Shown: positions 23,131 through 64,000 of the stretch, piece by piece
How positions within the stretch are numbered: the first letter of the stretch is position 1
How the letters are laid out: the number at the start of each line of letters is the position of its first letter
Position numbers and translations under genes: made by a program
From: Camelus dromedarius
Lineage: Eukaryota
Assembly: GCF_036321535.1 (NCBI RefSeq)
Contig: NC_087436.1
Location: 32,676,001-32,740,000 of the forward strand
DNA length: 64,000 bases
Direction of reading: 5' to 3'
Notes under the pieces: model-generated
Told to the model about the DNA's origin: nothing
Database searches by the model: none
The model's input: only the letters and a program-made list of their open reading frames with translations

Positions 23131-24508
23131 TGAAATAGAAGCTCTAATGACTTCTTACACACATAAAATACAAGAACACAAGGGTAATGGGGTCCAAAAA
23201 AATAGTCCGTGGTAGCTCACTGAATTCCAAAAAGAGCCTGGGTTATGTGCATACTGTGGCTAATGAAAATATTACCCATGGTAGGCCCCCCAACTTGCTG
23301 ATATAATTTCCATCAAGGCTCATGGCAGTTTTATGTACACATTTATAAGGGGAGACTCCTAAATACTACTACTGTTCTATATCTAAGGAGCTAAAGTACT
23401 TTCAGGAAAGACTATTTAATCTTCTTGTGTTTGAAAAACATAAAATGAGGTGATGACTGGCAAATGAGAGTGAGCCTGTTTAATATGAAGATTATGACGT
23501 AAATTGACAAAAGCCCAGGCATTCCAAGTCCAAGTTGCTAGGCACCTTCTTCTTGCTCCCATCTGAGCATAATGATATATTGTCAGCCTTAGCTGAAGTA
23601 CAAAAGGGTTATTAGACCTTGAGTCCATCTGCTGCCCGTGCAAAGGAAACAATTGAACTAACACTGCCTGCTCTTTTTCTTGGTCTCTTGCCACCTTAAT
23701 TATAGTTCATCTGGACTGTGTGTGTACTTGCTGCCTTGAGTAGAACATTTTCCAGGACTGTGAGAAAGCAGAGTGAAAACTCAGGTAAGGGAATTGAAGC
23801 AGAGTCTGCAGTTAGAGCTTGGGGTAGGTGTTATCTGACAAGTCACGGAAGCAATCAAGCCAGCAGCACACGCTACCCACAATTCATGTCACCACGATGC
23901 CTGCTTTTGCCAAACTATTTTCACAGAGTTTTTTTTAATTCAACCTTGGTCCTGGTTTTTATTTTTAAATGTTTTATGAGTGTGCATATGTATTTTTTTT
24001 TTCTTGTCAAGACTGCTACATCAGGAGATACTTTCTTTTGAATGTTAGGAATGAGAGATGAACCGTCTTACCTTTCAGTTCTATTTACCTATCATTTTTT
24101 AGATCAGCAGTCAGCCCCCTGTTTTCTGCTGAGGTACACCTTGTGGTAGATATCTTCAGGCAAAATGACATGGGTATACCATGCAACTAAGTCTGTGACT
24201 TGGATAAGATAGACTCTGGTGACATGCATCTCTTGAGAGTTAGTGTAACTTTATCTCTTTCTGTACAGTTAATTTGCGACTCACTTAGGTTACTATACCG
24301 CAAATAAAAATTGCTGCTCTAAAAATATGCCAAGTAGCTGTAAAATGGTGACAAATACTTAAACTTTTCAAGGGAGATTTTATAAGTCTTTCCTTCTCTT
24401 CATAAATGCTCTCACTGTGTGCAGAGTGTCTTTTCCTTACTCTGTGCAACTAGGACTATTGAGAACCTTTGGACAATGTTTTGATTAAAACTAAATTTCT
24501 TCTGCATT

Positions 24509-25187
24509 GTAGAAAACAGTATGGAGATTCCTCAAAAGACTAGGAATAGACTTACCATATGACCCAGGAATCCTGCTCCTGGGCATATATCCAGAAGGAA
24601 CCCTACTTCAAAATGACACCTGCACCCCAATGTTCATAGCAGCACTATTTACAATAGCCAAGACATGGAAACAGCCTAAATGTCCATCAACAGATGACTG
24701 GATAAAGAAGATGTGGTATAGTTATACAATGGAATACTATTCAGCCATAAAAACTGACAACATAATGCCATTTGCAGCAACATGGATGTTCCTGGAGAAT
24801 GTCATTCTAAGTGAAGTAAGCCAGAAAGAGAAAGAAAAATACCATATGAGATTGCTCATATGTGGAATCTAAAAACAAACAAACAAACAAAACATAAACA
24901 CAAGACAGAAACAGACTCATAGACATAGAATACAAACTTGTGGTTGCCAAGGGTGTGAGGGGGTGGGAAGGGATAGACTGGGATTTCAAAATGTAGAACA
25001 GATAAACAAGATTATATTGTATAGCACAGGGAAATATATACAAGATCTTATGGTAGCTCACAGAGAAAAAAATGTGGCAATGAATTATATATGTATGTTC
25101 ATGTATAACTGAAAAATTGTGCTCTACACTGAAATTTGACACAACATTGTAAAATGATTATAAATCAATAAAAAAATGTTAAAAAAA
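24509..25187 (+). mobile_element. 5'-truncated young L1 (ORF2 C-terminus, complete 3' UTR and A tail)
   Basis: ORF 24630-24872 ([20 protein letters not shown]...) is near-identical to the end of ORF2 at 51180-51743. Ends TCAATAAAAAAATGTTAAAAAAA. Degenerate TSD AAATTT..CT(G/A)CATT. Confidence 0.92.
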
Positions 25188-26317
25188 TTTCTACATTAAC
25201 TGAACTGCCCCTTCCCTCCAGAGTATCAAATATGTTTTTTCAGGGTGGGGGGATGGTCTGATTTTGTGTCTTAGTTCCTTTAAATAAGCATGTAGTTGAG
25301 AAATGTGGACAAGCTATTTGCAATGAATATAGGTAAGAATACATTCTCTCTGCTCAGTGTTAGTGGGTGTAACTTTAATTATTTCTAAGTATAAAATTTT
25401 TTTAATTAGTAAATTTGTTGTTTATCTTAAGATGCATTTTTCCTCAAGAAAATTAGGAAATTTAACCTGAAATTAAAATTTGTCAATATCAATATTAACT
25501 GGATTGCTTATAATAACCAATGGTATATGATGGCTCTAGTCTGCTTTTGGTTTATAAGAATGCTATTTTATGGCTAGTGAGAGGACTGAAAAGATACAAT
25601 GGGAGTAAATTAGTAGTTCCCCACCCTGCTAAATCACAAGAATCATCCTCAGGTGATTTAGATCAGGGACAGACGATGGCAGGGAGTTTGTACTTTGATT
25701 TCCCCAGGTGATTCTGAAGATCAAACAGATTGGGAAACTGCGGGAGAGATGGTAATAGTTTTTTCTTCCTTCTCCTAGTTCTAAAATTCCTTGACTAATC
25801 TCTATTTATCACGTTCAAAATAATAGAAATTTAGAGCTAGAAAGTATCTTATAGCACATTTGGCCTGAACCCCTTATAAAAAATAAAGTATTTTTAGAAT
25901 TAATTTAAAACATTAAGAAAATGGGTATAGAAAAAGAAACTAAAAATCACTACCCCCTAAACTCACCAACTAGACATAATTATTATTTACACTTGTAAAA
26001 TTTTCCTTCCCTTTTCTTGAATATGTATTTTTAAAAATTGGAGCACACTATACATATTTATGTATATACACATGTATGTTTCTAACCTGCTATTTTCACT
26101 TAATATATGAGGGTACATTCTCCACGTCATTAGATGTTCTTCAAGGTTACACAGTCAATGGTTTGGCTTGAACATAATCATTTTAATGGTAATTTAGGTT
26201 ATTTGCCTTTCTTCCCCCTTTATTGTAAATGATGCTGAGATTAACACCCTGATTGAAAGTCATACATATTCTTGATTATTTTCTTAGGATAAATTCCCAG
26301 AAGAGGAAGCTCTGGAA

Positions 26318-26555: not shown

Positions 26556-29399
26556 ATTCTGGCACTAAGGCAATGTACATTCAGAAACTCCTGATTTTTG
26601 AGAGAGTTACTGGCAACAAATTTAGAAAATTCCTGTTAGTTTGAGAGTTACCGCCAGTTTTCCCTCCAGAAAGGCTGAAGCACTAATGCTCTCACTAGAA
26701 GTGTTTGGAGTTCATTTTCCTGCATCCTCTCCAACACTGTCAACCTTTATTCACTTACAGATGAAGAAAAGTGAGGTGCAGCGAGACCAAGTTCCTTTGC
26801 ACAGGTCTCATTGTCAGGAATTGATAGATAGATCTGGGACTAAAATACAGATCCACAACTCCACACACTTGTCCTTATCACAATTCTAGATAAGAATTTT
26901 ACATCTGTACATTTTAATGGCCCTTGTTTCGCAGGATTGATTGGAGTTAAGCCTTTTTTGCCCTCCAGATACAATGTAACTGTGGGAGCACTGGAAAAAA
27001 AAAAAAGGAGTCATTCTTCAGTGTGCTCTGTGCTGATTGTTACCTTCCCTCCCTGAGAAATTGTCATTTATAAACATTTATGGGAAAAACTCTCTGAAAG
27101 TGTACAAGATTCACTTAAACTTTTGTTCTCTGAGATTGAAATAAAAACAGGTCTTAAAAATAGGTCACTAGAGGGCACTGTGACTCTTCAAGTTTTCAAG
27201 TTGTACTGTTGGTAAAAGAAATTCTACCCCGGGGGTATTTTTGATTTCAGGGAAGATTTTTGCTGGCATCCAGAAAAGTGTAACCAAATATGAAGAGTCT
27301 GAGAGGTGCATAAACATCGATATAAGACTGTGTACGAGCTGATCAGGAGGTTACCTTTTTCGGTTACAGGAAAATCCAAGTTTTATGATCTTTCATATTT
27401 TAATATGAAAATGGTATGTTTTGACCTAGCTTCCTTTTGGTTTAAGATAGTGTTCTGATCTTGAGGCTTTTCAATGTTTTTTCCCTCTAGAATATTTTAT
27501 GTTACAGTTGTAGCTGTGAGTGTTACTTGAGTCACCACATGGCATAAACCAATATTTGTGAAATAAAAATTTACATTGTAGTGACTTTAAAGCACTGTTA
27601 GACATTATATAACATCCCCCACCCCACCCAGTGACCTGGGCCTTTAGTAGATACTTTAGAATTGACCTGAAATAGCTTCAGTGACATCTTTATTTTTATT
27701 TATTTAAATAGTGTGCTGAAGAGAAAGCTCTTCCCCCACACACCATGGTGTTTCCTACTCCAAGCCTAAGATTATAACAATTAGTTAGCAGCATTGCTTT
27801 GACCTTCAAAATAACCTTCCTAAAGGACTACATGCTGAGTAGTACATCAAGTAGCAACTTTATTAACAATTTAAACTATGATTTCCAGTCACATAACATA
27901 AAAACCGAAGAACATTTGAAATAGTAGTAGTTGCTGGTTTTAATCTGATAAACTTGCAAGTGATTTACCAAATTTTTTCCATTATATGTTTGCCATCTTA
28001 AAGTATGCTGTTTATTAAAAAAATCCACAAATCATTAAGTTTGAGTTTGTTCTGACCTTATTAAGTGGACTTGGCTTAAACGAGGAATGGTCTTGTAGTC
28101 TTCAACAACCATATGCTAGGTTTTCCTTTAGAAAACAAAAAGAAAGGCTCTTAATATTATACTAAATATAAAATATTAATACCATATTTAAAATATACTT
28201 AAAAATGAAAAGAAAGGCTCTACTATTTCTATCTGGAAGATAATCTATCAAAATCAGTTCCGACTGATTTCCTTATGTTTCCTAACCAAACTTATCTTTC
28301 ACAAGAGTTCATCTGCCCCATCCCCTCTACATCCCCCTCAATCCCTCAATTCAGAGTTTATGTTAGCAAAACTCTTTCTCTCCATCTCTCTGGCCCCTCC
28401 ACTCCCTTTCCTCCTCTCAGTCCAACAAGCTGTAGGATTCTATTTCTACATATCTCCAATTGTGTATATGCTTATTTTTTCATTTCTAGAGTGACAGTTT
28501 CTAAAAATAGCCAAATCATGTAATACAGCATCTCACTATATGTAGCTTGGGTTCAAATCATGTATCAGTATATGGTTCATTCCTTTCATTATAAGGCAGA
28601 ACCTTTTAAGTAATGGTGGCAAGTCTTTCCCCCAGGATCAATGTTACAGTTTCCTTTATGGAAAGTGAGATTAAAAAAAAAAAAAAAGGAGTATGTGTTG
28701 CATGTCCTTTGTTTGCTGGTCTAGGGTGGCATTTGAAATTGCGCATGAATTAGTGGCCAGTTTAGCTTTTTACGGGTCCATGTGGATACGGGGCTTGCTA
28801 CTTTAAACATGTACTTTTCCTACTGTGGCACTCTGCTCAAATCTGTTTCTGCCCCCTCTTTGCAGCATGGTAATCATAGCTAACACTGGATACCAATATA
28901 CATGGCAGGCTAAGCACTTCACATACGTTATTAGGGCCCATCCAGGTTCCACCGTGCTCTCTTGGCCTGGGCAGGATCGGCAACATGTTCTTTGCGTACT
29001 CAAAATGTATTGAATGTATTTCCAGAAAGGTTATCTTATGGGCAGTAATTTGAGAATTACCTAGCAGTCTGACTTCCAGAATGACCCTAGGATTCCCTTC
29101 ATTACACTTTAAAAATAATATTTTGGGGATGGGATTATAGAAGAAGAAAATATGTCACGGAGTATTTTGTATATAAAAACTCGTTTCCCCACTCCCCCTC
29201 CACCCACAAATGAAAGGTTCCCTGCAGCCATTCCACCATTATGGTTCCTAAGAAGAGGGGAGCTGCTGCCTTGGGAAGAGGAAGATGGTTGTTAAGGGAA
29301 GTCTAAATCAGGTCACGTAGAAACAAAGTCAGGGAGGGGCTGAGGAAGACAACGGTCTGACAAGCGTGTCGGGATTTACTCCGCGAGGGGAAGGGGTGC

Positions 29400-29914
29400 T
29401 AAAGAGTGGGGGAATCTCGGCCGCCTGACCAGGAAACCTGACGGCGGGCATGGGACGCGGCAAGTACCTCATTGTGTCTCAAAGGGAGTGACAGGTATGT
29501 GCGAGACTCAGGGATCACGACACCGCTGTGCAAGTCGCCTCTTCTAACGCAGAGAGAAGGACAGGCAAGGAGAACGGCAGCGACGCTACGCGGGGCTGTG
29601 CAAAGACAGCCACTGGCGGAGGCGGTGCTTCTCGGCAGCTGTGCGTGGCTGTGCGTGGCTTGCGTGGCAGTGCGTGCCTATGCGTGCCTGTGCGTGGCAA
29701 TGCGTGCCTGTGCGTGCCTGTGCGAGCCGGTGCATGTTGTGTGGCACGGGGCAGCCTGGGAGCCGCGGGGTCAATTCTGGGCAATTCCTGGCTGATGGGA
29801 GACGCGGCAGAAGTTGCTCATTGCCCTCGGGGAACCCCTACGGGGTCCGAATGCTCGGTGAGCCCAGCTGCGTCCTCAGTGGATTCCCTCAGAGACCCAG
29901 GCCGCAGGTAGCAA
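29400..29914 (+). other. Probable first exon(s) of an unidentified plus-strand gene
   Basis: Donors CAG|GTATGT (GT at 29495), CAG|GTAGCA (29908) and CAA|GTGAGT (29915) lie within or at the 3' edge of the CpG island. ATG at 29795 opens MGDAAEVAHCPRG... The TSS is not determinable, so the start is approximate. Confidence 0.45.
29641..29730. repeat. 10-bp-period GC-rich minisatellite built on TGCGTG
   Basis: GTGCGTGGCT GTGCGTGGCT TGCGTGGCAG TGCGTGCCTA TGCGTGCCTG TGCGTGGCAA TGCGTGCCTG TGCGTGCCTG TGCGAGCCGG. Confidence 0.9.
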
Positions 29915-30779
29915 GTGAGTTTGCCGGCCGGCTTGACGGAGTGTGTTCCTGCTGACCCTCGCATGACCACCTGGGAGAACGCAAGGGGAGGGAAGCCCTG
30001 TGACAGTCTGCCATTACCTAGAGAGGCCTTGCTTACCCGAAGGGTACAGTTCTACCCTGGAATTGTGTATTTAGCAACCAGAAGAAAAGCAGTAACCTTA
30101 ATGGACTGGTTTACTTCCCAGCTCCACTGAGTGAACTTGAGGGCTGCATGATGTCAGCGATACGGAAAAGAAAGGAGCCACATTTTTCTGAAACACGTGA
30201 GTGTAGCGTGTACTTTTACAATCTCACAAAGCACACTTTGTATTGAAACTATAGAAAAGTGGAATGAAAAAGGGGAACAACATTAATCTAGCAAAAAAAA
30301 AAAACCCTCAGTATCTTTTTTGATAATGTTTTCTTCGAGAAAATACACAATTGTATCAAAAAGGTCATGATGTATATACAATTTCCTGTCTTAGTTTTTA
30401 TACTTAATGCTGTATGTTGAACATTTTCTCAAATTTTCAAATATTCAATGGCTTTAACTTGATTGTACTCTTCACCTTCCTCCCTTTTCTCAAATGTTTC
30501 TTCTGGCCCCTTTACTGCCACAACTGTCTGCTTTATACCTCTCCTGGGTGCATCAGGCTTCCTCTTTTTCAGTCATGCCTGTATTTTGGGAAGCCTTTTT
30601 GAATAATGTAGCTACCATTAAGTATTCAGAGAGACTGTTGCCTTGACATATTCTCCATTTATGACTCAGTGCCTCATTCATAAATCGAATTGGAATTAGG
30701 AAGGGGTAGACTGGCCTGTAATTCCATATATTGAGAATAATTTTGAGAGCTAATTAATATGAGCAGTCTTACTATTTAT

Positions 30780-43900: not shown

Positions 43901-44111
43901 AGTGAATAATTGATATATAATTTATCATTTGATAAATAATGGTTTATAGGTTGGCAGTGTAATGCATTGATTTGGTGAACTGTGAAGGTACTACAATGTG
44001 ATAGAGAATTGTCTGATGACTTTTGGAAGATTAATACCTCAGGAAGTAATTAGATAGGTATGCATAAAAGTCATCTAAGCATACTTAAAGACATTTTGAC
44101 ATCATATTTTA

Positions 44112-44303
44112 TTTTATTTTTAACATTTTTTATTGATTTATAATCATTTTACAATGTTGTGTCAAATTCCACTGTAGAGCACAATTTTTCAGTTATACAT
44201 GAACATATATATATATATATTCATTGTCACATTTTTTTCTCTGTGAGCTACCATAAGATCTTGTATATATTTCCCTGTGCTATACAGTATAATCTTGTTT
44301 ATC
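44112..44303 (-). mobile_element. 5'-truncated young L1 3' end
   Basis: Near-identical to the reverse complement of the 3' end of 24509-25187. Exact 17-bp TSD TTTGACATCATATTTTA at 44095-44111 and 44304-44320. Confidence 0.93.
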
Positions 44304-46635
44304 TTTGACATCATATTTTAAATTGGGGAGCTAGAACTAGATTTGTTAAATGCCGGTAATGTGGAAAACTAGATTATTTTGAATGCTTTTTTCTTATTTC
44401 ACAAAAACCCAGCATTCTGAAAACTGGTAATATATTCCTTAACTAAGCTGCATCTGTAGTCTGGACTTGTGGACTTCGTTCTCCATCTGTTAATTTCTTT
44501 GAACTGTCTCTTCCAGTTGTTTGTATGTTAAGACATAAACAAGAAAATAGTCTTGATATCTTTGAAAATCATTGCTTTCATTTCTCTATAATCTTCACAA
44601 TTTGTAGAAATATATTTCCAGATTGATTGTTTTAAAGGAGAAGGTAGGCAAATGTGAGTTATATATCTTTCTAACACAAAAAAGTCAGTAATAAAGAAGT
44701 TAATAATCTATTCTTATTAGAAAGACCAAGAAACTTGTGCAGAAAGAAAGTTAAACTTTAGTATTTTTTCTAACCAGTGAGCAAAGAAGAAAAATTTTTC
44801 CAGGAGTTTTTTTAACCTCCGTCAGTGCTGCATGGCAGTGTGGTACTTTGTTTTATATTTAGAAGTATGTGCTCTCTCCTAGTTTATGATGCAGCAACAA
44901 AAGTGTGTGAAAATCTACCACCAGTGGTAATGGTACTTTGGAGGAAACAAAGAATTTTTTTCCTAGTGGATAGCAGGAGGCAAAATGACCTCAAATAATG
45001 GTGTTACTCAAGGGAGACACATTCTTATTTCTAATTGAAGGGATTTTTCTTAGTTTCGAAGGATGAAAAGAGTAAACATTAAATAAAAGTTAATACATTT
45101 CATTATTTTATTAATTAAACTTTAGTTGAAAGCATTTTCCCTTTTAAACAATGTAGAGAAGAAATCACATGTGATTAGCACAAACGTAAGACAATTAAGG
45201 CCATAAATTAGAATTTCCAGAAGCTCTGATTGATTACTGAATGCAGGATTTATTTTGAAGACCTTTTGGTAACCTCAGCTGTAATGTTTGCTTCCACAGA
45301 AGGCTCAGTGAGTTGGGGAAGGAGTTCACATGGTCCCCTTAGGTCATAGCCGGCATTTAAAACTGATTTCCAACTTGGGGCTCACACTTTTGTTCCAAAC
45401 CTGAATCTTTTGGCATCAGAGCTCATGTTCTTATGGCCAATTTGGATTTTTAAGCAAAGAAGCTAATTTAAAAAGCCTCTTGGACAACAAATGACTTTTA
45501 AAAAATAACATTTTAATGATTTAAATGGAAACAAACCAGAAGAAGCTGGATTAAATTTCTCTTAAAGTATACATGTTTAGCGATTAAGAGGAAAAAGTGG
45601 CTGAAAAAATGCTGTCTGTTATTTTCCTTCAAAACCCCAAATAGTTGAACAATTGAGTAGCTCAAAATACTTGAATTGTGATATCTTTGTGGAAAATATT
45701 TCTGGCAATGAGTACTGTTAATAAAGGAATGAGAGATGATAAACTCTTTAACAATGAATTTTTTAATCTGTATAGTTTTTTAAAGTCTTGGTGATAAAAC
45801 TATTTTACTGAAGATTCTTGAAGAAGGTCAACCTGATTTAAGAATTTTAAGAAAGAATAAGTGTTTTTAGAAAAATTGTGAATTAAGGTTTTCCTAGATG
45901 GCACTTACTGTTTGTGTTTTCCAAAGCTTTTTAATACCAAACAATTTTGAAATGTCTGTATTTTCTTAGCCACTGTAGACTTTCTATATTAGTGGGAGAG
46001 GTTGAGAAGACTAGGCTTTTCAAAAATGTGAGCTTGATTTAGATGGTAAAAAGTTTTGTTACAGAGGGGAAAAGAAATGTAGATTAGTAGAAGATTTAAA
46101 TTAATAGGCAGAAGTGTGGGTTTGAGGAGGTTCAGTAAATAACACCCCTCTTTTCTTTTAATGTTTTGAGTGAACTGAGAAATGAAGTAGGGAAGATGGG
46201 AGATCAAAATGCCATCTTTATGTTTCATAAAGCTAATGTGGAAGACCAAAGTTTAGCTGTGGTAACAATGGGCTTCTTTTCAAAACAGAGCTAGGCAGCC
46301 TTCCCCAACCAGTTCCAAACAGCACAGGACTGGGCAGGCATTACCTGGCAGGGTCGGGGCTGCCCCATACGACCTTCAGTGTGGGGAGGTAGCATTAAAT
46401 GTTTGCTTTCTGCTGTCATTCTGTTTCCAAGAGAAAGGGAAGGGGAAATGAGTTGAACATGCCATTTTATTCTTCTTAACATTTTAATTCAGTAAGTCTG
46501 TGTGCCTCTCTTGGGGAGTGGGGAGAAAAGTTTTGGCAAGAGCCCAAGAATGTTACTTTAATGGGGTTTCTTTCACATTGGAAGGAAACATCAAGAGCAG
46601 GAAAATGTTTTTTCTGAGATTTTTGTCCTTTTAAC

Positions 46636-50090: not shown

Positions 50091-50828
50091 CTGTGAATGT
50101 GTAAAGGAATTGACTGATGTGACTGGAGGTTGACAAGTTCTAATATCTGTAGTTGGCAAACTGGAGACCCAGAAGAGCCAATGTCTACTTCCAGTCCAAT
50201 ATTGAAGGTGTGAGAACCAGGAGAGTCAATGTGTTCTAGTCTTGAGAGCCAGCAGGCTTGAAACCCAGGAAGACCTGGTTTCATTTTGAGTCTGAAGGCA
50301 GGAAAAACCCCTGATATTCCAGCTTAAGCAGTCATGCTGGAAGAACTTTGTTTTACTCAATGCTTTTTGTTCTATTTAGGCCTTCAATGGATTGGATGTG
50401 GCCCTCCTACACTAGGGAGGGCAGTCTGCTTTACTCAGTGTACTGATTCAAATGTTAATTTCATTCAGAAAACCCCTCAAAGACACACATAGAATAGTAT
50501 TTCACTAAATATTGGTCATCTCCGTGGCTCAGTCAAGTTGACACGTAAAATTAACCATCAGAGGCTAAAAGGAGCAAAGTACTGTCAGAGATAGTGAGAG
50601 AGAGACTAGTGGGCTCCTTTGTCCTTGCCCATAGACAACAGATGCTATCTAACATATTCACTGAATTGTGAGCTGCGTGAGAATGGGGTCATTTTAATCA
50701 TCTTTCCATTCTCTTGCCACCAAAAATGTGTTCTGTAGAGTATGTACCTTGATAAATCAACAAATAGATAAATAAATAAAAATAGCTCCTGCATTACAAC
50801 ATAAAAAGGTAATAGGGTTCTTTTTTTT

Positions 50829-50967
50829 AATTTGTGTTTATATTAAAATAATAGGAGCATTAAAAGGGCATCATATGAATTAACAAAGAGTATCAAATAG
50901 ATTTCATCACATGCGCAAGCGGACTCTTGTTAACATGAGACAACTTTCGTCTGTTGACTCAAAGTTC
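50829..50967 (-). other. Non-L1 3'-transduced sequence
   Basis: Non-L1 DNA between the L1 A-tract (T13 at 50968-50980) and a second T-tract adjoining the TSD (50821-50828). Confidence 0.8.
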
Positions 50968-51179
50968 TTTTTTTTTTTTTCTTTCTGTGAGTTATCATAA
51001 CATTTTGGGTATATTTCCTTGTGCTATACAGTGTAGTCTATTCTACAATTTTGAAATCCCAGTTTATCCCTTCCCACCCTCCACCCCCCTGGTAACCACA
51101 AGTCTGTATTCTCTGTCTGTGAGTCTATTTCTGTCCTTTATTTATGCTTTGTTTTTGTTTGTTTGTTTGTTTTTGTTTT

Positions 51180-54100
51180 TTAGATTCCACATATGAGCGA
51201 TCTCATATGGTATTTTTCTTTCTCTTTCTGGCTTACTTCACTTAGAATGACATTCTCCAGGAGCATCCATGTTGCTGCAAATGGCATTATGTTGTCGGTT
51301 TTTATGGCTGAGTAGTATTCCATTGTATAAATATACCACCTCTTCTTTATCCAGTCACCTGTTGATGGACATTTAGGCTGTTTCCATGTTTTGGCTATTG
51401 TAAACAGTGCTGCTATGAACGTTGGGGTGCAGGTGTCATCCTGAAGTAGATTTCCTTCTGGATACAAGCCCAGGAGTGGGATTCCTGGGTCATATGGTAA
51501 GTCTATTCCTAGTCTTTTGAGGAATCTCCACACTGTTTTCCACAGTGGCTGCACCAAACTGCATTCCCACCAGCAGTGTAGGAGGGTTCCCCTTTCTCCA
51601 CAGCCTCTCCAGCATTTGTCATTTGTGGATTTTTGAATGACGGCCATTCTGACTGGTGTGAGGTGATACCTCATTGTAGTTTTGATTTGCATTTCTCTGA
51701 TAATTAGTGATACTGAGCATTTTTTCATGTGCTTTTTGATCATTTGTATGTCTTCCTTGGAGAATTGCTTGTTTAGGTCTTCTGCCCATTTTTGGATTGA
51801 GTTGTTTATTTTTTCTTATTGAGTCGTATGAGCTGCTTATATATTCTGGAGATCAAGCCTTTGTCGGTTTCACTTGCAAAAATTTTCTCCCATTCCGTAG
51901 GTTTTCTTCTTGTTTTACTTCTGGTTTCCTTTGCTGTGCAGAAGCTTGTAAGTTTCATTAGGTCCCATTTGTTTATTCTTGCTTTTATTTCTTCTAGGAG
52001 AAAATTTTTGAGATGTATGTCAGATAATGTTTTGCCTATGTTTTCCTCTAGGAGGTTTATTGTATCTTGTCTTATGTTTAAGTCTTTAAACCATTTTGAG
52101 TTGATTTTTGTATATGGTGTAAGGGAGTGTTCTAGCTTCATTGTTTTACATGCTGCTGTCCAGTTTTCCCAACACCATTTGCTGAAGAGACTGTCTTTGT
52201 TCCAATGTATATTCTTGCCTCCTTTGTCAAAGATGAGTTGACCAAAAGTTTGTGGGTTCATTTCTGGGCTCTCTATTCTGTTCCATTGGTCTATATGTCT
52301 GTTTTGGTACCAGTACCATGCTGTCTTGATGACTGTAGCTCTATAGTATTGTCTGAAGTCTGGGAGAGTTATTCCTCCAGCCTCTTTCTTTCTCTTCAGT
52401 AATGCTTTGGCAATTCTACGTCTTTGATGGTTCCATATGAATTTTATTATGATTTGTTCTAGTTCTGTGAAATATGTCCTGGGTAATTGGATAGGGATTG
52501 CATGAAATCTGTAGATTGCCTTGGGCAGTGTGACCATTTTAACAATATTGATTCTTCCAATCCAAGAGCATGGAATATCTTTCCATTTTTTAAAGTCTTC
52601 TTTAACTTCCTTCATCAATGGTTTATAGTTTTCTGTGTATAATTCTTTCACCTCCTTGGTTAGATTTATTCCCAGATATTTTATTACTTTGGGTGCTATT
52701 TTAAAGGGGATTGTTTCTTTACTTTCTTCTTCTGTTGATTTATCGTTAGTGTAAGGAAATGCAACTGATTTTTGAACGTTAATCTTGCAACCTGCTACCT
52801 TGCTGAATTCTTCAATCAGCTCTAGTAGCTTTTGTGTGGACCTTTTAGGGTTTTCTATATATAGTAACATGTCATCAGCATATAATGACACTTTTACCTC
52901 TTCTTTTCCAATTTGGATCCCTTTTATTTCTTTCTCTTGCCTGACTGCTGTGGCTAGGACTTCCAGGACTATGTTGAATAGGAGTGGTGATAGTGGGCAT
53001 CCTTGTCTTGTCCCAGATTTTAGTGGGAAGCTTTTGAGTTTTTCACCGTTGAGTACTATGCTGGCTGTAGGTTTGTCATATATAGCTTTTATTATGTTGA
53101 GATACGTTCCCTCTATACCCACTTTGGCGAGAGTTTTTATCATAAATGGGTGTTGAATTTTATCAGATGCTTTTTCTGCATCGATTGAGATGATCATGTG
53201 GTTTTTGTCCTTTCTCTTGTTGATGTGATGTATTACACTGATTGATTTGCGTATGTTGAACCAGCCTTGTGTCCCTGGGATGAACCCCACTTGGTCATGA
53301 TGTATAATCTTTTTTATGTGTTGTTGGATTCTATTTGCTAAAATTTTGGTGAGGATTTTGGCGTCTATGTTCATCAGTGATATTGGCCTATAATTCTCTT
53401 TTTTTGTAGTGTCTTTGCCTGGTTTTGGTATCAGGGTGATGGTGACTTCATAGAATGAGTTTGGGAGTATTCCCTCCTTTTCGATCGTCTGGAAGAGTTT
53501 GAGAAGGACTGGTATGAGTTCTTCTTTGTATGTTTGGTAGAATTCCCCGGTGAAGCCGTCCGGTCCTGGACTTTTATTTGTAGGGAGGTTTTTAATTGCT
53601 ATTTCTATTTCCTTTCTAGTGATCGGATTGTTCAAGCGTTCAGATTCTTCTCGATTCAGTTTTGGTGGACAGTATGTTTCCAGAAACTTGTCCATCTCCT
53701 CTAGGTTATCCAGTTTGGTTCCATATAGTTTTTCATAATATTCTCGTATGATATTCTGTATTTCTATTTTGTTTGTTGTAATTTCTCCATTTTCCTTTCT
53801 TATTTTGCTAATTTGTGCTCTCTCTTTTTTCTTCTTTGTGAGTTTGGCCAGAGGTTTGTCGATTTTATTTACTTTTTCAAAAAACCAGCTTTTGGTTTGG
53901 TTGATTTTTTCTATGGTCTTGTTAATCTCTATTGTATTTAATTCCTCTCTGATCTTTATTATTTCCTTCCTTCTGCTGCTTTTTGGGGCTTTTTGTTCTT
54001 CTTTTTCTAATTCATTCAGCTGGTGGGTTAAATTGTTTACTTGAGATTGTTCTTCTTTTTTGAGGAAGGCCTGTATCGCTATAAACTTCCCTCTTAGCAC

Positions 54101-54923
54101 TGCCTTTGCTGTGTCCCATAGGTTTTGAGTGGTTGTGCTTTCATTATCATTTGTCTCAAGGTATTTTTTAATTTCAGCTTTGATTTCCTCATTGATCCAT
54201 TGTTTTTTCAATAACATATTGTTTAATCTCCATGCTTTCCTTTTTTTCTCCTTTGTTTCTCTGTTGTTGATTTCCAGTTTCATGGCATTGTGGTCAGTAA
54301 AGATGCTTGAGATAATTTCTATCTTCTTAAAATTGTTGAGGTTTCTTTTGTGCCCAAGTGCATGATCGATCCTGGAAAATGTTCCATGTGCACTTGAAAA
54401 GAATGTATATCCTATTTTTGGGGGGTGTTGCCTTGTTTATTTTCTGTCTGGAAGATCTGTCTAGTGATGTTAATGCAGTGTTAAAATCTCCAACTATGAT
54501 TGTATTCCCATCAATATCCCCCTTTATCTCTGTTAGTAATTCTTGTATGTACTTAGGTGCTCCTATATTGGGTGCATATATATTAACGAGTGTAATATCC
54601 TCATCTTGTATCACTCCTTTAATCATTATAAAATGTCCTTCTTTATCTTTCTTTATGGCCTTTGTTTTAAAGTCTATTTTGTCTGAAATCAGTACTGCAA
54701 CACCTGCTTTTTTGGCTTTTCCATTTGCATGGAATATCCTTTTCCATCCTTTCACTCTCAATCTATATGTGTCCTTCTCCCTAAAGTGGGTGTCTTGTAT
54801 GCAGCATATTGAAGGTTCTTGCTTTATTATCCAGTCTGCTACTCTGACTCTGTGTCTTTTGACTGGAGCATTTAGTCCATTAACATTTACAGTAATTAAT
54901 GATGGATGTGTGTTTATTGCCAT
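51180..54923 (-). pseudogene. L1 ORF2 (endonuclease, reverse transcriptase, CCHC), broken by two frameshifts
   Basis: EN motifs (NVNGLN, VGDFN) in 54327-54923, RT motifs (QGCPLSP, YADD) in 51806-54283 and CCHC knuckle CWRGC...HCWWEC in 51180-51743. Lesions are a deletion with frameshift at ~54428 and a 1-bp loss in an A-run at ~51810. Confidence 0.95.
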
Positions 54924-55327: not shown

Positions 55328-56230
55328 TTAGAATATCCCTTTCAATATTTCTTTTAGCATGGGTTTAGTGTTGCTAAACTCCTGCAGCTTTTTTCTGTCT
55401 GTGAAACTCTTTATTTCTCCTTCTATCCTCAAGGATAGCCTTGCTGGATAAAGGATCCTAGGCTGCATCTTTTTTTCATTCAGGGCTTTGAATATATCTT
55501 GCCACTCCCTTCTGGCCTGTAGTGTTTGTGTAGAGAAATCAGCTGAGAGCCTTATGGGGGTTCCCTTGTAACTTACTCTTTGCTTTTCTCTTGCTGCCTT
55601 TAGAATCATTTCTTTATCCTTGACTCTGGCCATCTTGATTATTATATGTCTTGGTGTGGGTCTATTTGGGTTCTTCCTGTTTGGGACCCTCTGAGCTTCC
55701 TGTACTTGGATATCTGATTCCTTCTTTAAGTTTGGGAAGTTTTCAGTCATGATTTCTTCAAAAACCTTTTCCATCCCCTTTGATCTTTCTTCTCCTTCTG
55801 GGACCCCTATGATGTGAAGATTGGGACGCTTTATATTATCCCATAGGTCCCTTATGCTATTTTCATTATTTTTTATTTGCTTCTCTTGTAGTTCTTCTGA
55901 ATGGGTGCTTTCTATTGCCCTGTCTTCTAGATCACTAATTCGTTCCTCTGCATTATCTAGTCGGCTTTGCACAGCTATTAGATCATTCCTCATCTCTGTC
56001 AATGAGTTTACCCATTCTACTTGGCTCTTCTTTATAGCTTCAATTTCATTTTTGACATATTTTATATCTCTAAACACTATCTCTTTTAATTCCTTCAGCA
56101 ATTCGATCACTCCTTTTTTGAAATCTTGATCTAGTAGGCTATCGATGTCCATTTCGTTGATCTTTCTTTCAGGGGATTTCTCTTGTTCTTTTAATTGGGA
56201 AAGGTTTTTCTGCTTCTTCATCTTGCTCAT
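55328..56230 (-). CDS. L1 ORF1p (coiled coil, RRM, CTD), intact, 300 aa
   Basis: Uninterrupted ORF with L1 ORF1 motifs WDNIKRPNL.IIGVPE, ENFPNL, TPRHIIIK, IRLSADFS, ARREW and YPARLS. Confidence 0.95.
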   Translation of the reverse strand: MSKMKKQKNLSQLKEQEKSPERKINEMDIDSLLDQDFKKGVIELLKELKEIVFRDIKYVKNEIEAIKKSQVEWVNSLTEMRNDLIAVQSRLDNAEERISDLEDRAIESTHSEELQEKQIKNNENSIRDLWDNIKRPNLHIIGVPEGEERSKGMEKVFEEIMTENFPNLKKESDIQVQEAQRVPNRKNPNRPTPRHIIIKMARVKDKEMILKAAREKQRVSYKGTPIRLSADFSTQTLQARREWQDIFKALNEKKMQPRILYPARLSLRIEGEIKSFTDRKKLQEFSNTKPMLKEILKGIF

Positions 56231-57918
56231 ACCTCTTTGGCACTGTGGTGTATGGAGTATCAGTTGTTTATTTTGGTCCTTAAGGATTTTATCTATCTGA
56301 TGCCTATTTAGGAATAAAACTTAGGAAAAACAGAAAAAAAAAAATAAGAGAGAGAGAGAGAATTTTAAAAGAAGGGAGAAAGAGGGTTTGAAAACAGTGT
56401 ATAATGAATAATAGAAGAGTGAGTTGAAGCAGAGTATTAATCGGGTTGAGACGTCCTTTTAAAACCTTTACAAAAAAAGGGGGGGGGGGAGATGAATAGA
56501 TGTATTTGAAACCTGTGTCTAATCAATAGCAGGACATCAAAACCCAAGAGAAATAGAAATGAATTAAGAAGTAAAGATTAAGAGAGTAATAGAAAATAGA
56601 ACAGGTAAAAACATTTAAAAAAAAAAGGGGGGGGGGTTTGTCGGTGTTCTCCTGGAGTCTGTGTGCTTTTAATGTGAAGTCTTTCTGTCTTCGTCCTGTT
56701 TTGGAAGCTCAGCTTGCTGTTTTCAGAGGCCCTCCATTGGCGCCCTCTTCTGTGCTGCTCCCAGCACCTGTCAGCAAGCATATCGTGCCTCCTCCTAACA
56801 CTGGGTCAGGTGCAGCTCTCTGCTGTGGGTGGGCGGGTCGCTGCCCCTCCGGATGCCGCAGTCAGATGTTGCAGACTGGCCAGGTAGGAGGGCGGGTCGT
56901 GCCTCCTCCCAGCACCTCGGTCAGGGGCTTTGTCCTGCCCGAAAGGTGGGGGGCCGCTCTCGCTCTACCTGTGCTGCCGGTAGCTCCGCTGCTCTGTGCG
57001 GCTGTGCGTTCCGCCCTGGTAGGCGCTCCGCCCTGGTCGGCGCTCCGCGGGTGGGCTCGGGAAGACCGAGGGACAGCCCTGTCCCTGCTCCGAGCCAAAA
57101 CCCAGCTGCTTGTTTGTCTTTGTGGAGCAAGTTCTCTGAGGGACCAGGATGGAAGGATCCTATCTGCCCCGGGCTGCAGGCCAGTCTCAGTCTGGCCTTT
57201 GCGGCTGCTAAGCCCTTTGGTGCGGATGCAGGTTTCGCCCCCGCCCCCGCCTGAGTGCTCAGTGCGGAGGATATGGTGGCTGTGCCTGAGCCCCGCCTCT
57301 CTTCCCCCGAAAACTTTCCGCGGGTTTTCAGAGATGGGAGTGTGCACCCTTCCCCCTAGAGCACCTCAACCTTGCTGTTTTATGGAGGGCCCAGGTGGTT
57401 CTGCCCTGTGCACCCACAGCCTCGGCGCGCACCCCCCTGTAGTCCCCCGGGGCAAACTCCGTGCAGCCACTTCTGTCCTCCGCCCGGCTTGTGCAGCCTG
57501 GCCCTGCCCGCGGCTGCCGGCCCGCGTCTCAGGCTGGGTGTCGGGGGGACGCTCTATGCCCCTTTAACTTAGTTCTGTTAGTCAAGGGCTGCTCTGTACA
57601 GATCTGAGCCTCGGAGGCTCCCCCTCCGTCCCGCTGGCCTCTCAGTTGGAGAGGGGAGACCCAGCGAGCGAGCGCCGGTCCTCCTTTGCCGCTCCCTCCC
57701 CGCGGGACCCGTCCTGCGCTGCTTTGCCTTTTGCTCTTTCTTTTTTCCTTTTCTCCTACCAGATTTTTGGCGTCTTTATCTTTTGAAGAGGGCGATGTTC
57801 TGTCGGAGTTCCACAGGTGCTCTGGTTGGCTGAGTGGGTCTGTAGATGTGGGTCTTGGTGTATTTGTGGGAGAGGGTGACCTGCGAGCGTCCTTCTACTC
57901 TGCCATCTTCTCCGTCTC
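56231..57918 (-). promoter_or_regulatory. L1 5' UTR with CpG-rich internal promoter
   Basis: GC/CpG-rich from ~56830 to 57918. YY1-like AAGATGGC near the 5' end. Low-complexity segment ~56300-56640 upstream of ORF1. Confidence 0.85.
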
Positions 57919-58299
57919 AATAGGGTTCTTTTTGAAAGTTTTCTTGATGGTCCTGAATTTGACTTTTTGATTTTTGTATTGGTAGCTTAGTTTTGGGAGT
58001 CTATAGGTTTTTTTTTTCTCTTTTCTTTTTGAGTCTATAGTTTTAAGAGACTTAACAAACCCATAAGTTCTTTATTTCCAGTGCAGTGAAAAATCTTAAA
58101 AATGAACCAGAGTGAACTGCGTGTATTTATTGTTGGTGCATATAATTAAGGAATTATGTGTTGGATGGACATGCTAGAATGGCAGTTGATGGCACAATGA
58201 TTAAAGTAATAATGATTGAAAGACCTGAAAGCATCCCAGATTCAAAGAGTATGTGATCTGAAGACAGTGTATACCCATTGAATTGTTTCCAAATTTAGG

Positions 58300-58410
58300 T
58301 ATCAGAAAATTCTTTACTTCTCTGAAACTCAGTTTCCTCATCTGTAAAATGGGATGATAATTCCTTTTGATTGGGATTGTTGTAAGGATTAAATTAGATA
58401 ATTTATTTTT
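58300..58410 (+). mobile_element. MIR core
   Basis: CTCAGTTTCCTCATCTGTAAAATGGGATGATAAT...TGTAAGGATTAAATTAGATAA. Confidence 0.75.
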
Positions 58411-61016
58411 ATTGCCTGAGTGTGTAATATATAGAAACCAGGGGAGAATAGGTCTTAACTAGAGTCTAACTGAGCTCTAGACATGCCTGGTGAGGTGATT
58501 CAAAAGTATTACCAGAAATTTATTTACAGGGACACTATTAAGCCTCCTGGCAAACATCTCTGGTCATTTGAGTAAAATGGAGATCCTAATTTTTTGAATG
58601 GTATCTTCTACTTGGATTTTCCTTCTGGCCCAGTATTTCATATCTGCATATATTGGAGAGTGTGAGTTGATGCAGACATAAAAAGAGAAAGAGCAGTTCA
58701 TAGAAAACTTTGTGCAACATTATGGATATCAGCAGGACGATCCCTTTTTCTTATAAGTTAAGGGAAATATTTTCTCCCACTTTGTCACAGACTGTTATAC
58801 AGCACTGACACCTTAAAGCTATGCTTCCCAGTGTTTTCCGATGTCATGACAAAACATGGAAACTAATTTTTATGGAACCTTGAAGGTACTGGAATAGTTC
58901 AGAGTCATTGCTTTGGTGCTTGATGAAAAAGTTGAGATGAGGTCAAAGATAAGGTTAGTACACAAAGCTTTGACTGAGAGATACTGTACTTCTACTAGGG
59001 ATGGAAACAACTTTTGGCTCCAGGCTATATAGCCAACCCAAAGCAGAACACAAGATCAGTTACATGATTCACAGTATTCATGACATAAAAATAGTTCAGG
59101 GGGGCTTTATTTTGATTATTTTGATAGTGAGGTCAGAATGAAACCTCACTCGAGACTTCATAGTGAGGACACTGTGAGATATGGTAAATACAAATGTCTT
59201 TAGCATCATATTTATGATAAATACACTGAGAAACTTCATAGGGATCTAAATAAAATCATCAGGATAGCTTGACATTAATTCAAATCATTATTCCAGAAAA
59301 TAAATTCTATGATGTGTGTATGGTAGAATCTAATGTAATGCATTTGGATACTCAGTTGTATGGTGGTCTGGTATTTAATCCAAGAGTAACTTTTAGAATG
59401 GAATATTTCTAATAAGAATCCCTTTTCATGCTTTTGTAGAACACAGATACCTAGGCCCACCCTCCAAAATTCTGATTCCTTTGGCCTTGGGTAGTGTCTA
59501 GGCATGGGCAAGAATAACGGATGCATGACATTTTCTTCAGATAGTCCTCCATAGATATTATTTCTCTCTACTAAGTTTGTTATGGGTATGACACAACAAT
59601 AAATTTCAGAATATATTTCCTGAAAAATGCTTGATTCGTATCTATTTTATAATTTAAATCAAGTACAGAGTTTTAACAATCAGCTGACCTGCAGATGGGA
59701 GTGGCAATATAATATCTTCACCAACAGTTGTTACTATCTTTTTGATTTTAGTCATCCTAGTGGCTGTGAAGTGGCCCTGATGGCTAATCATGACTAATAA
59801 TGGCCATTTCTACAATTTTTTGGAGCAATGTTTATAAAGATCCTTTGCACATTTTTAGATTTTGTTATTTATCCTTTATTTTTGAGTCCTAAGAGTTCTT
59901 TACAATTCTAGATACAAGTCCCTTACCAGATATATGATTTGCAAATATTTTCTCCCAGTCTGGATTATTTTTTTACTGTATGGATGTGATCTTTTGTAGC
60001 AAACGAGTTTTTAATTTCGATGAAGTCTAACTTACATATTTTTCCTTTTGTTGCTTATGCTTTTGGTATCATATAAAAAAAGAAACCATTGCCAAATCCA
60101 ATGTCTCGAAGATGTACTATTTTTTCCTAAGAGTTTTATAGTTTTAGCTCTTTCATTTATGTCTGTGATCCATTTTGAGTTAATTTTTGTGTGCTATGTG
60201 AAAGCATTCAGTTTAATTTCTTCTTGCATAATGTATGTTTTGTTGTCTCATTACCATTTGTTGAAAAGACTGTTCTTTCCTTATAGAATTGCCTTTGCAC
60301 ATTTAATAAAAAATCAGTTTACTGTAAACATAAGAGTTTATTTCTGGACTTTCAATTTTATTCCTTTAATCTATATGTCTATCCTCATGCCAGTATCATA
60401 CTGTCTTGATTACTGTAGCTTTGTAGTAAGTGTTGAAATTGGGAGTCCTACTTTGTTATTCTTTTCCAGGATTGCTTTGGATATTCTGAGTCATTTAAAA
60501 TTCCATATGAACTTTAGGATTAACTTGTCAATTGGTGCCAAAAAGTCAGTTGGGATTTTGTAAGGATTGTGTTGAATCTGTAGGTCTTGCCATCTTAACA
60601 ATATTAAGTCTACTAAATGCTTACTTGGGTCTCTCTACTTACTTTCTTAAATTTCTTTCAGTAATTTATACTTTTTAGAGTATAAGCTTTGTGCCTTTTG
60701 TTGTTAAATTTTTTCCTAAGTATTCTATTCATTTTGATGCTACATAAATTGAATTTTATTAACTTCATTTTTAGATTGTTCATTCCTAGTGTATAGAAAT
60801 TCAAGTGATTATTGTATATTGATCTTGTATGCTATAACATTGTTGAACTTGTCTATTAGTTCTAATAGGTTTTTAGTAGGTTCTTTAGGGTTTTCTGTAT
60901 ACAAAAAATCATTATACATAAGTAGAAATAGGTATACATTCTTCTTTCCTTTCTAGATGCCTTTTAGTTTGTCTTCTTGCCTAATTGCTCTAGATAGACC
61001 CTCCAATACAATTTTT

Positions 61017-61583
61017 TTTATTTTTCTGTTTTATTCGGTAGAATTGTTACAGTTTGACTGATTGCATGTAAATACATATATACTATATACTGCACATATT
61101 TTTTAAAATTTACATATATGTACTGTTCATTGTTTCTAAGAACATGAAGAGCTTTCGCTTTTTACACTTAAATAGTTATCAAAGGAATAAAGCTAACTAC
61201 AAGATAAGAATTAATTCAAAAAGATACATAAACCTTGCCATTAACAGCAACATTATTTTTAATTGCCAAGATATGGACACATCCTAAGTGCACATCAATA
61301 GATGAATGAATAAAAAAGATGCAGCATATATAAATAATGGAATACAACTCACCCGTAAGAAAGAAGGATATTTTCCCATTTGTGGCCTCTCCTTCACTTT
61401 TTTTTTCCACTTCAAAAACCAGAATTTTATAACTGGCATAGACATTTCCATTGCATCAAAAACAACAAAATACATAGAAATAAACTTAACCAAGGAGGTT
61501 ACCTAAACTCTGAAAACTGTAAAACATTGATGAAGGAAATTGAAGATGATACAAAGAAATGGAAAGATATTTTGTGCTCTTGG
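61017..61583 (-). other. TSD-flanked polyadenylated retrocopy or orphan transduction
   Basis: TSD TCCAATACAATTTTT at 61002-61016 and 61584-61598. Minus-strand AATAAA at 61030-61035 lies just before the A tail. About 180 bp of non-L1 sequence plus oppositely oriented old L1 fragments. Confidence 0.6.
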
Positions 61584-61598
61584 TCCAATACAATTTTT

Positions 61599-62061
61599 TT
61601 AACATTTTTTATTGATTTATAATCATTTTACAATGTTGTGTCAAATTCCAGTGTTCAGCACAATTTTTCAGTCATACATGGACATATACACACTCATTGT
61701 CACATTTTTTTCTCTGTGAGCTACCATAACGTTTTGTGTATATTTCCCTGTGCTATACAGTATTATCTTGTATATCTATTCTACAATTTTGAAATCCCAG
61801 TCTATCCCTTCCCACCCTCCGCCCCCCGGGCAACCACAAGTCTGTATTCTCTGTCTATGAGTCTATTTCTGTCCTGTATTTACACTTTGTTTTTGTTTGT
61901 TTGTTTGTTTGTTTTTTAGATTCCACATATGAGCGATCTCATATAGTATTTTTCTTTCTCTTTCTGGCTTACTTCACTTACAATGACATTCTCCAGGAGC
62001 AACCATGTTGCTGCAAATGGCATTATGTTGTCAGTTTTTATGGCTGAGTAGTATTCCATTG
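61599..62061 (-). mobile_element. 5'-truncated young L1 3' end
   Basis: Near-identical to the 3' part of the full-length L1 but with the complete terminus. Exact 17-bp TSD GGTCCAATACAATTTTT at 61582-61598 and 62062-62078. Confidence 0.93.
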
Positions 62062-62584
62062 GGTCCAATACAATTTTTAATAGAAGTGTTGAGAGCAGAT
62101 ATCCTTGTCTTGTTCCTGATCTTAAGAGAAAAGCATTGAGTCTTTAACAATGATGTATGAAGCTAGCTGTGGGGTTTCCCAAGACGACCTTTATCAGGTT
62201 GAGGAAGTTCTCCTCTATTCCTTGTTTATTGAGTATTTTTATCATGAAGGAATGTTGAATTTTGTGGAATTCCTTTTCTGCATTAATTGAGATAATTAAG
62301 TGGTTTTTGTCCATTATTTTATTGATACAGTTTAATACATTAATTGGTCATGGTGTATAATCTTTTTTATATGCTAATGGATTAGGTTTGCTAGTATTTT
62401 GTTGAGGATTTTTGCTTCTATAAGAGATATTGATCTTCAGTTTTCTTGTGATGTCTTTCTGCTTTTGGTATCACAGAATAGTGGCCTCATAGATTGAACT
62501 GGGAGCTGTTCCCTCCTCTTCTATTTTGTGAAAGTGTGTGAAGTATTAATTTTGTATTAAGTACTAATGTTAATACTACTGTAT

Positions 62585-64000
62585 TATTTTTTTATTGAAG
62601 TAGATTTGACATACAATATTATGTTAGGTTCAGGTATACAACACAGTGTCTCAGCATTTATGTACATCAAGAATATGATTACCGGTGGGGAGGGTATAGC
62701 TCAGTGACAGAGTGTGTGCTTAGCATACACAAGGTTCTGGGTTCAATCCTGAGTACCGCCATTAAAGAAAAAATTAAAAGCCTCCATTAAAAAAAACAAA
62801 ACTAAAAAGACATACATACATTCATACATACACCTGATTACCTATGCCCACTACAAAAGAAAAAGAATACGATCACCATGGTAAGTCTAGTAACCATCTG
62901 TCACCATTCAAAGTTACTACACTATTGTTGACTATATTCCCTATAATGCACATTATGTCCCCATGAGTTACTTATTATATGACTAGAAGTTTGTATCTCT
63001 TACTCCTCTTCACCTATTTCATTCACTCTCCTACCCACTTCCCCCCTGGGAACTACCCATTTCTTTTCTGTATCTGTGGGTCTATTTCTGTTTTGTTTTT
63101 TAGATTCCATGTATAAGTGAAATCATTCGGTGTTTATCTCTGTCTGACTTATTTCACTTAGCATAATACCCTCTAGATACATCCATGTTATTGCAAATGG
63201 CGAGGTTTCACTTTTATGGCTAATATTCCATTATGTATCTATAAACACATACACACACGTATATATATGTATGTGTGTACACACACACACACATTTTCTT
63301 TATCCACTCGTCTGTCGATAGCCACTTATGTTGCTTCCATATCTTGGCTATTGTAAATAATGTTGCAATAAACATAGGGGCACATATATCTTTTTGAGTT
63401 AGTTTTTTGTATTCTTCAGAAAAATACCCAGAATTGGAATTATGGAATCATATGGTAGTTTTATTTCTAATTGTTTTGAAGAACCTCCATGCTGTTTTCC
63501 ATAGTGGCTGCACTAATTTACATTCCCATCAATAGTGTTATAAGGGTTTCTTTTTCTCCACAACCTCAAAAAGATAACATTTTTTTTTTGATAAGAGCCA
63601 TTCTGACAGGTGTGAAGTGATATGTCATTGTGGTTTTAAATTAATTTCCCTGATAATTAGTGGTAATTATAATTAGTGATAATTCATTTATCTGTTGGCC
63701 ATCCATATGTCTTCCTTGGAAAAATATCTGTTCAGGTCCTCTGTCCATTTTTTAACTGGATTGCTTCTTTTTTTTTTTGATATTGAGTTGTATGAGTTCT
63801 TCGTCTATTTTAGATATTTTAGATATTAACCTCTTATCAGATGTATCATTTAAAAATACCTTCTCCAAAATGAAAACTAGATGGCTTTTTTCTTTTGTTG
63901 ATGGTTTCCTTTGCTGTGCAAAAAGCTTTTTGATTTGATATTGTTTCATTTGTTCATTTTTCTTTTCATTTCCCTTGGATCTGAGGAGACAGATCCAAAA
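62585..64000 (-). mobile_element. Intermediate-age L1 3' UTR and ORF2 end (runs off the window)
   Basis: TTTTTATTGAAGTAGATTTGACATACAAT 3' terminus, followed by antisense 3' UTR and ORF2 C-terminal homology. Confidence 0.85.
62684..62862 (+). mobile_element. tRNA-derived SINE (camelid Vic-1 type)
   Basis: GGGGAGGGTATAGCTCAGTG...GGTTCAATCC (A and B boxes) with an A-rich tail. TSD AAGAATA(T/C)GAT(T/C)ACC at 62669-62683 and 62863-62877. Confidence 0.88.

Follow-up and report, generated by a model that had tools for sequence, protein, structure and literature searches.

How does a full-length L1 come to be separated from its own target site duplication (TSD) by DNA which is not L1? This question is raised by an insertion on the minus strand of a 64,000-nucleotide stretch of the Camelus dromedarius genome (contig NC_087436.1, positions 32,676,001 to 32,740,000; this whole stretch is termed the window, and all positions are counted from its first letter). 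A preliminary description, derived from the letters alone, had explained the arrangement by a source L1 which had lost its own poly(A) signal, was thereby forced to read through into its flank and should have left a traceable lineage of daughters. The reading favoured here keeps a part of this: with a probability of about 0.5, a weight which, like those given in words to its rivals, is a judgement on rough priors, the insertion is a partnered 3' transduction from a parent which already ended at the internal A-rich tract of its family and is now absent. The insertion is composed of the following features.

50811 to 50825, plus strand: TSD copy on the 3' side of the L1, 15 bp
50817 to 50828, plus strand: left copy of a direct repeat, 12 bp, overlapping the TSD and three A's
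50826 to 50828, minus strand: the three A's beyond the TSD, i.e., the second 'tail'
50829 to 50967, minus strand: non-L1 tag, 139 bp
50837 to 50844, minus strand: variant poly(A) hexamers AATATA/TATAAA, where the contiguous match of a second tag copy also ends
50964 to 50975, plus strand: right copy of the direct repeat, comprising the tag start and A-tract, with an informative part of 4 nt
50968 to 50980, minus strand: A13 tract, at the position of the internal A7 of the L1 family
57919 to 57933, plus strand: TSD copy on the 5' side of the L1, then GA, giving an endonuclease-type site TTTTT/GA

The 15 bp of the TSD are the longest exact match between 50760-51010 and 57500-58500 (50811-50825 and 57919-57933), for which Markov models of the window yield a chance expectation of about 2-3e-6 within 300 positions. 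Read in L1 sense, the order inside the TSD is L1, 13 A, the 139-bp non-L1 tag and 3 A, and the left TSD copy is indeed set apart from the L1 A-tract by non-L1 sequence and a further A-run, as had been described. This second run consists of 8 T at 50821-50828 of the plus strand, five of which lie within the TSD, leaving 3 extra A only; just upstream of the A13 tract 2 extra A's are found relative to sibling copies of the same L1. A single TSD with an endonuclease-type target hence encloses L1 and unique sequence together, by which a 3' transduction is recognised. Five bases at the 5' junction of the L1 (57914-57920) recur at 50957-50963, following the 9 bp shared at the tag start with a 3-nt offset, probably by chance. 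The left flank (50100-50570) looks like an old LTR of MLT2 type, which may be the reason for its lack of depth in the sequencing comparison below.

The 3' end of the L1 can be compared with that of three sibling fragments located within the window.

24505 to 25192, plus strand: sibling L1 3' fragment with full canonical end and an 8-bp flanking match
44095 to 44320, minus strand: sibling L1 3' fragment with full canonical end and a 17-bp TSD
61582 to 62078, minus strand: sibling L1 3' fragment with full canonical end and a 17-bp TSD

Past the internal A7, all three siblings extend for another 104-110 nt and possess AATAAA 7-8 nt before their tail, while the focal A13 sits at this very A7, so that both the reported stop at an internal A-rich tract and the reported absence of the last ~110 nt including AATAAA were borne out. 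The focal copy differs from two of the siblings by 5.3% (the copy at 61582-62078) and 7.7% over about 340 bp, and its 3' UTR carries an about 9-bp deletion near 51037 relative to the siblings. Sibling terminal tails comprise about 5-7 A, TSD A's included (25057-25192, 44095-44247, 61582-61720); a short terminal tail is normal for the family of the focal L1, and tail length was dropped as a sign of internal priming because sibling tails are equally short. Ending at the internal A-rich tract without a normal 3' end, the focal L1 possesses the end that characterises internally primed L1s, and the same end would result from premature polyadenylation (a weak AATATA, 51015-51010, sits 29 nt upstream of the A-tract) or from A-tract deletion. 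The paired A-runs of the family, i.e., the internal A7 and the terminal run, invite internal priming as well as A-to-A deletion. APOBEC editing of the L1 3' UTR was considered too and dropped after inspection by eye, as contexts were mixed.

Elsewhere in the window, an older relative of the same L1 3' UTR with complete end and AATAAA occupies 2900-3300 of the minus strand, and 59800-63972 is a mosaic of older L1 pieces in both orientations (65-75% identity), the young sibling at 61582-62078 residing between reverse and forward older pieces. A CpG-rich patch (29300-30100, o/e 0.74), promoter-like or repeat-derived, stands out from the otherwise AT-rich window and contains, at 29639-29733, 9.6 tandem copies of a 10-bp unit.

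Whether the short end is simply the normal end of a subfamily was addressed by a sequencing comparison over 50560-51130, which covered four of the 24 runs listed, namely X1, X2 and X12 as contigs (organism codes A, B and C) and X21 as raw reads, read to about 12%. Loose ends at 50976 were read as the canonical long end in all four runs. In the bin 50960-50979 the depths observed in the contig runs (21,565; 24,323; 11,102) are close to those expected if the copies of the family leave at 50976 (22,419; 25,106; 11,848), whereas 67,257, 75,316 and 35,545 would be expected if the family ran through the tract. The window's base accounts for 0.5-2.6% of the depth at 50983 and for 0.014-0.066% at 51008, and raw reads of X21 carry the family base in 6/6 and 4/4 cases. 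The short 3' end is hence private or nearly so and not the subfamily consensus, in agreement with the preliminary description.

The L1 itself is full-length and runs on the minus strand from 57918 to 50968 (6,951 bp).

50981 to 51179, minus strand: L1 3' UTR without its last 104-110 nt, with the weak AATATA
51180 to 54923, minus strand: ORF2, endonuclease and reverse transcriptase, broken
55328 to 56230, minus strand: ORF1, open, 300 aa
56231 to 57918, minus strand: L1 5' UTR with a GC-rich promoter part (56700-57918)

Within the promoter part the CpG o/e is 0.57 against a background of 0.13-0.16, and a 17-bp tandem repeat of 2.5 copies is located inside the 5' UTR at 57006-57048. ORF1 matches PF02994, PF17490 and PF17489 above cut-off, i.e., the L1 trimerisation, RBD and dsRBD domains, and its exact protein sequence was absent from the protein collection searched. 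ORF2 matches PF03372 (endonuclease) and PF00078 (reverse transcriptase) and aligns to human ORF2p chains at 1297 and 235 bits, and it is split over three frames by breaks near 54425-54436 and 51806-51815 plus small indels, the endonuclease being short by about 15 residues near 54425-54436. With only one of the two ORFs intact that retrotransposition competence demands, the focal copy is dead, which has no bearing on the competence of its parent.

The 139-bp tag has no second copy within the 64-kb window, the best other match being 19 bp (E 0.08). As described earlier, it carries AATATA (50844-50839) and TATAAA (50842-50837), located 10 and 8 nt before the last A's, against the 10-30 nt at which a signal is looked for ahead of the new tail of a 3' transduction, and the poly(A) tail which follows amounts to 3 A beyond the TSD, sibling tails being equally short and the sibling signal spacing being 7-8 nt. 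The tag start noted before, AAAGAAC, is present in the focal insert, and only one of its A's belongs to the second tag copy treated below. A structured RNA as origin of the tag was rejected: the folding z is -0.09, 89 of 200 shuffles fold as well and no Rfam family was identified, all three matches of the Rfam search falling under the gathering score (best E 0.31). Metagenome contigs scanned for exact patterns gave 0 loci for the tag and likewise 0 for the 3' end of the L1 family.

Evidence on further copies of the tag comes from contig break-points and depths of X1, X2 and X12, as X21 has zero depth on the tag. The unique left flank is at zero depth in all runs; tag copy numbers are relative depth ratios, and since contigs drop rare variants, they would miss rare polymorphic siblings. 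The tag core forms, in X1 and X2, a separate contig (50856-50968) which is identical to the window and has depths of 72.8 and 118.6, while the contigs leading from the tag into the L1 begin at 50939 with depths of 40.5 and 97.4 and one difference each; the core is thus 1.2-1.8 times as deep as the L1 junction. X12 holds core and junction in one contig (50856-51022, depth 10.5). Subtracting the listed contigs from the depth leaves a second piece from 50939 (34.6 in X1 and 69.2 in X2; in X12 from about 50929, 4.3) and a left piece ending at 50885 (25.2, 61.3 and 7.1). In a 31-mer simulation, a non-T at 50969 in another copy was required for the shared contig to end at 50968. A second copy next to an L1 with a tract of 7, 10, 13 or 20 A was rejected, as the simulated contig then ended at 50974 or later and never at 50968. 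At least one other tag copy would accordingly share a single A with the tract, implying that no L1 tail precedes that copy. Chance was taken to explain an apparent joint between 50782 and 50964, which has a side of 21 nt and lies between A-rich repeats.

The core 50856-50968 appears to be shared and identical, and most likely the contiguous match of the second copy spans 50837-50968. Heterozygosity at the focal locus was rejected by reasoning as the cause of the contig breaks, because all three contig runs break at 50856 and no continuation leads from the piece 50837-50885 into the flank of the locus. Fitting the number of loci to the depths of X1 and X2 gave residuals of 0.28 for two loci, 0.33, 0.89 or 1.58, according to how they are arranged, for three, 1.06 for four and 2.77 for six. 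From these assemblies the tag is best taken to have 2-3 copies, the focal locus and an L1-less donor being the simplest reading; three loci, including a surviving L1-tagged source or sibling, are possible and fit worse or need more unseen contigs. A copy of the tag distant from the insertion, as a 3' transduction calls for, is therefore indicated by break-points and depths in three runs, and together with the 15-bp match this agrees with the earlier placement of the tag inside a TSD and with the second genomic copy which had been expected. The empty donor site, which had been allowed for, gives the best fit, with at least one other copy lacking the A-tract. The lineage is another matter: several independent insertions with the tag were not seen, two loci fitting the depths of X1 and X2 best, three being possible and four or six fitting poorly. 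The two-locus fit has its price, as the sampled animals must then differ from the window at 50855, in a contig beyond those compared. Window and sampled animals show one difference in the junction contigs (50969-51022), plus 50855 in the best fit, either as real polymorphism or through assembly polishing by reads of other copies.

On its other side the second copy is less sharply delimited. For the left piece, the simplest start in all three runs is 50837, and a separate 27-bp piece (50818-50844) is obtained in X1 and X2, whereby the fit is non-unique with 11, 2 and 516 solutions within tolerance. By chance, 1-2e-4 such pieces are expected if the match is exact and 0.38 if it has two mismatches. 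As a lead, the 27-bp piece could be the continuation of the donor, separated by a later insertion which made an 8-bp duplication, and this continuation could then end in a genomic A8 run offering 8 nt of complementarity to the target primer. If so, the three 'tail' A's would be genomic and the variant hexamers irrelevant.

On the features tested, the focal insertion is an L1 3' transduction, and to the established points (one TSD around L1 and tag, a private short end, a second copy of the tag) the favoured reading adds a truncated source L1, which would have resided at the donor. It assumes that this parent ended at the family's internal A-tract, where reverse transcription or polyadenylation would have begun at its own insertion. 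With AATAAA lost and only the weak AATATA left, RNA of the parent would frequently have read through, and a full-length L1 RNA running on into about 140 nt of the parental flank may have ended, or been primed, at an A-rich site some 140 nt further downstream, to be integrated by a single target-primed insertion. The parent would not have become fixed, leaving, in the animals sampled at any rate, a donor site that is now empty ('parentless'); it would have left the focal copy and at most one other, hence no visible lineage, and ORF2 of the focal copy would have been broken since insertion. In favour of transduction, the 15-bp TSD and its TTTTT/GA site surround both L1 and tag, and in favour of a truncated parent the 2 extra A's before the tract resemble stutter at an initiation site. 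Precedents are described: in dog an L1 lay within 50 bp of only 3 of 27 mapped transductions, parentless donors being the rule (PMC13141329), donors of this type were similarly reported in non-human primates (PMC4862182), and both internal priming and premature polyadenylation are recognised causes of L1 3' truncation (PMC4859970).

Several points stand against this reading. The donor is known from contig break-points and depths, and the parent L1 at it is one that we infer. Internal priming at the donor faces the difficulty that the primer of an empty donor would end in a single T, whereas efficient priming is described to require about 4 terminal matches (PMC3649969). In the simplest fit the contiguous match of the second copy ends 8 nt short of the tail; a poly(A) signal was reported for 79% (274/349) of human transduction endpoints and hence not for all (PMC13009371). 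The same source describes human L1s with canonical signals which also transduce, so that loss of AATAAA is unnecessary and the earlier statement that the L1 was forced to read through went too far.

A further difficulty is posed by the 12-bp direct repeat which flanks the tag and which the preliminary description had missed. The L1/tag junction repeats the target's initial 9 bp; its A's are to be expected anyway, which leaves 4 informative nt after the A-run, identical at tag start and target. Of the 537 A-runs in the window, 6 (1.1%) are followed by these 4 nt, as are 52 of its 1,133 endonuclease-like sites (4.6%), making the repeat a coincidence at 1-5% chance under the transduction model, and the match of the second tag copy stops exactly within the 5 nt common to the target. 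A template switch with re-annealing, or a later insertion, predicts such a repeat. As the mark of a nested insertion, for which an own TSD of at least 5 bp is looked for, the 12 bp are present with the same limit of 4 informative nt and 1-5% chance.

The alternative that fares best, to be regarded as unlikely and still worth serious weight, needs one nick, two templates and no parent L1 at the donor. Here, the nicked target end would first copy about 140 nt of an unrelated RNA or DNA from an A-rich patch; the new end, with its 5-nt match to the target start, would then re-anneal and recopy the A-run, or jump directly, upon which L1 RNA would serve as template from its internal A-tract up to its 5' end. 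With re-annealing, no coincidence is needed for the 9-12-bp repeat or for the end of the second copy's match in the shared 5 nt, and the scenario also accounts for a second copy that lacks an L1 tract and for siblings not being seen. The single-copy 27-bp piece (50818-50844, two of three runs, from a non-unique fit) would give the 8 nt of primer complementarity at the other end. Nine two-RNA insertions were reported from an L1 expression system in PMC11702581, and that source also describes a full-length L1 with clean TSD, here of 15 bp, as the pattern of an undisturbed insertion, which speaks against such an event. Against it, too, two rare steps are required at once, the catalogued chimeras in the passages of 10.1101/2025.02.02.635956 considered here place foreign RNA 5' of the L1 and not 3', and the repeat has its 1-5% chance anyway.

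A little less probable again is an ordinary transduction from a normal parent which never lost its signal, with the last 104-110 nt dropping out between the two A-runs, the internal A7 and the terminal one, either by slippage of reverse transcription or by later deletion. The missing piece has A7 at both its ends, and 7+7 is close to the 13 seen; moreover, the focal copy carries other deletions, and for Alu internal priming was said to be hard to separate from oligo(A)-oligo(A) recombination (PMC5322556). This scenario leaves the 2 extra A's before the tract and the 4-nt coincidence unexplained and needs a second rare event besides transduction.

Doubtful to a greater degree is a history of two events, i.e., a 3'-truncated L1 with its 15-bp TSD, followed by a 135-bp templated insertion at the tail/TSD junction (an orphan transduction, a class 1 TSIP or a repair patch) having its own 9-12-bp duplication and 5-nt microhomology at its 5' end. 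It accounts for the 12-bp repeat on both sides of the tag and for a donor without L1 tract; microhomology is reported as typical of 5'-truncated junctions (PMC11702581), and TSIPs have been described (PMC5110952). Its nick, however, would lie within the T-run and not at T/A, a rare insertion of unique sequence would have to strike the exact junction of an already rare truncated L1, and the 10-40 A tail, the AATAAA 10-20 nt upstream and the TTTT/A site which define class 1 TSIPs in PMC5110952 are absent here. The reverse order, tag first and then L1 into the same site, was rejected, as the TSD copy at the L1 5' end has target and not tag sequence, while a blunt L1 insertion between the tag and the TSD copy is formally possible. 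That a young subfamily normally ends in this short end plus tag, or that the tag is a pre-existing flank, is highly improbable, since nothing was found in favour of either, the tag depth corresponds to 2-3 copies against a summed depth of 10^5-10^6 in the L1 part, the reads of the family go on into the long end and the tag lies inside the 15-bp TSD.

Compared with known systems, the focal insertion comes close to parentless partnered 3' transduction in dog (PMC13141329) and primates (PMC4862182): L1, unique sequence and A's share one TSD, and the second copy of the unique sequence has no adjacent L1. Unlike these cases the focal L1 is without its own last 104-110 nt and AATAAA, its tail has only 3 A beyond the TSD, and the tag is flanked by a repeat of the target start. 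With 3'-truncated L1s (PMC4859970) and tailless retropseudogenes (PMC5322556) it shares the end at an internal A-rich tract, but here the truncated end is followed by transduced-looking DNA and not by the TSD. As in L1 transduction families, of which a human one has 14 members (PMC6425141), the tag could link parent and daughter; unlike in that family, only 2-3 copies of it are indicated, and no progenitor or sibling was seen. Foreign sequence, an L1-less donor and short junction homologies are common to two-template insertions and TSIPs (PMC11702581, 10.1101/2025.02.02.635956, PMC5110952), from which the focal insertion is set apart by the position of its foreign piece, 3' of a full-length L1, and from class 1 TSIPs (PMC5110952) also by having neither long tail nor AATAAA. 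In the accessible portions of the open-licence literature no report of a 3'-truncated source L1 with transduction was found, and likewise nothing on camel L1 3' ends, including the Camelus TE survey (PMC8605555), 10.1101/2022.02.16.480772 and PMC9311842.

Taken as an ordinary parentless transduction, the insertion testifies once more to recent L1 activity in this genome and is of minor importance. If the parent was truly 3'-truncated, as the favoured reading holds, it would represent a natural L1 which moved without its last 110 nt and without its own poly(A) signal. If instead two templates were joined at one nick, the insertion would be a germ-line fossil that mimics parentless 3' transduction, and 'parentless' tags need not mark lost source elements; some of the catalogued parentless transductions could then be alike, the sign to be looked for being a repeat of the start of the TSD where L1 and tag meet.
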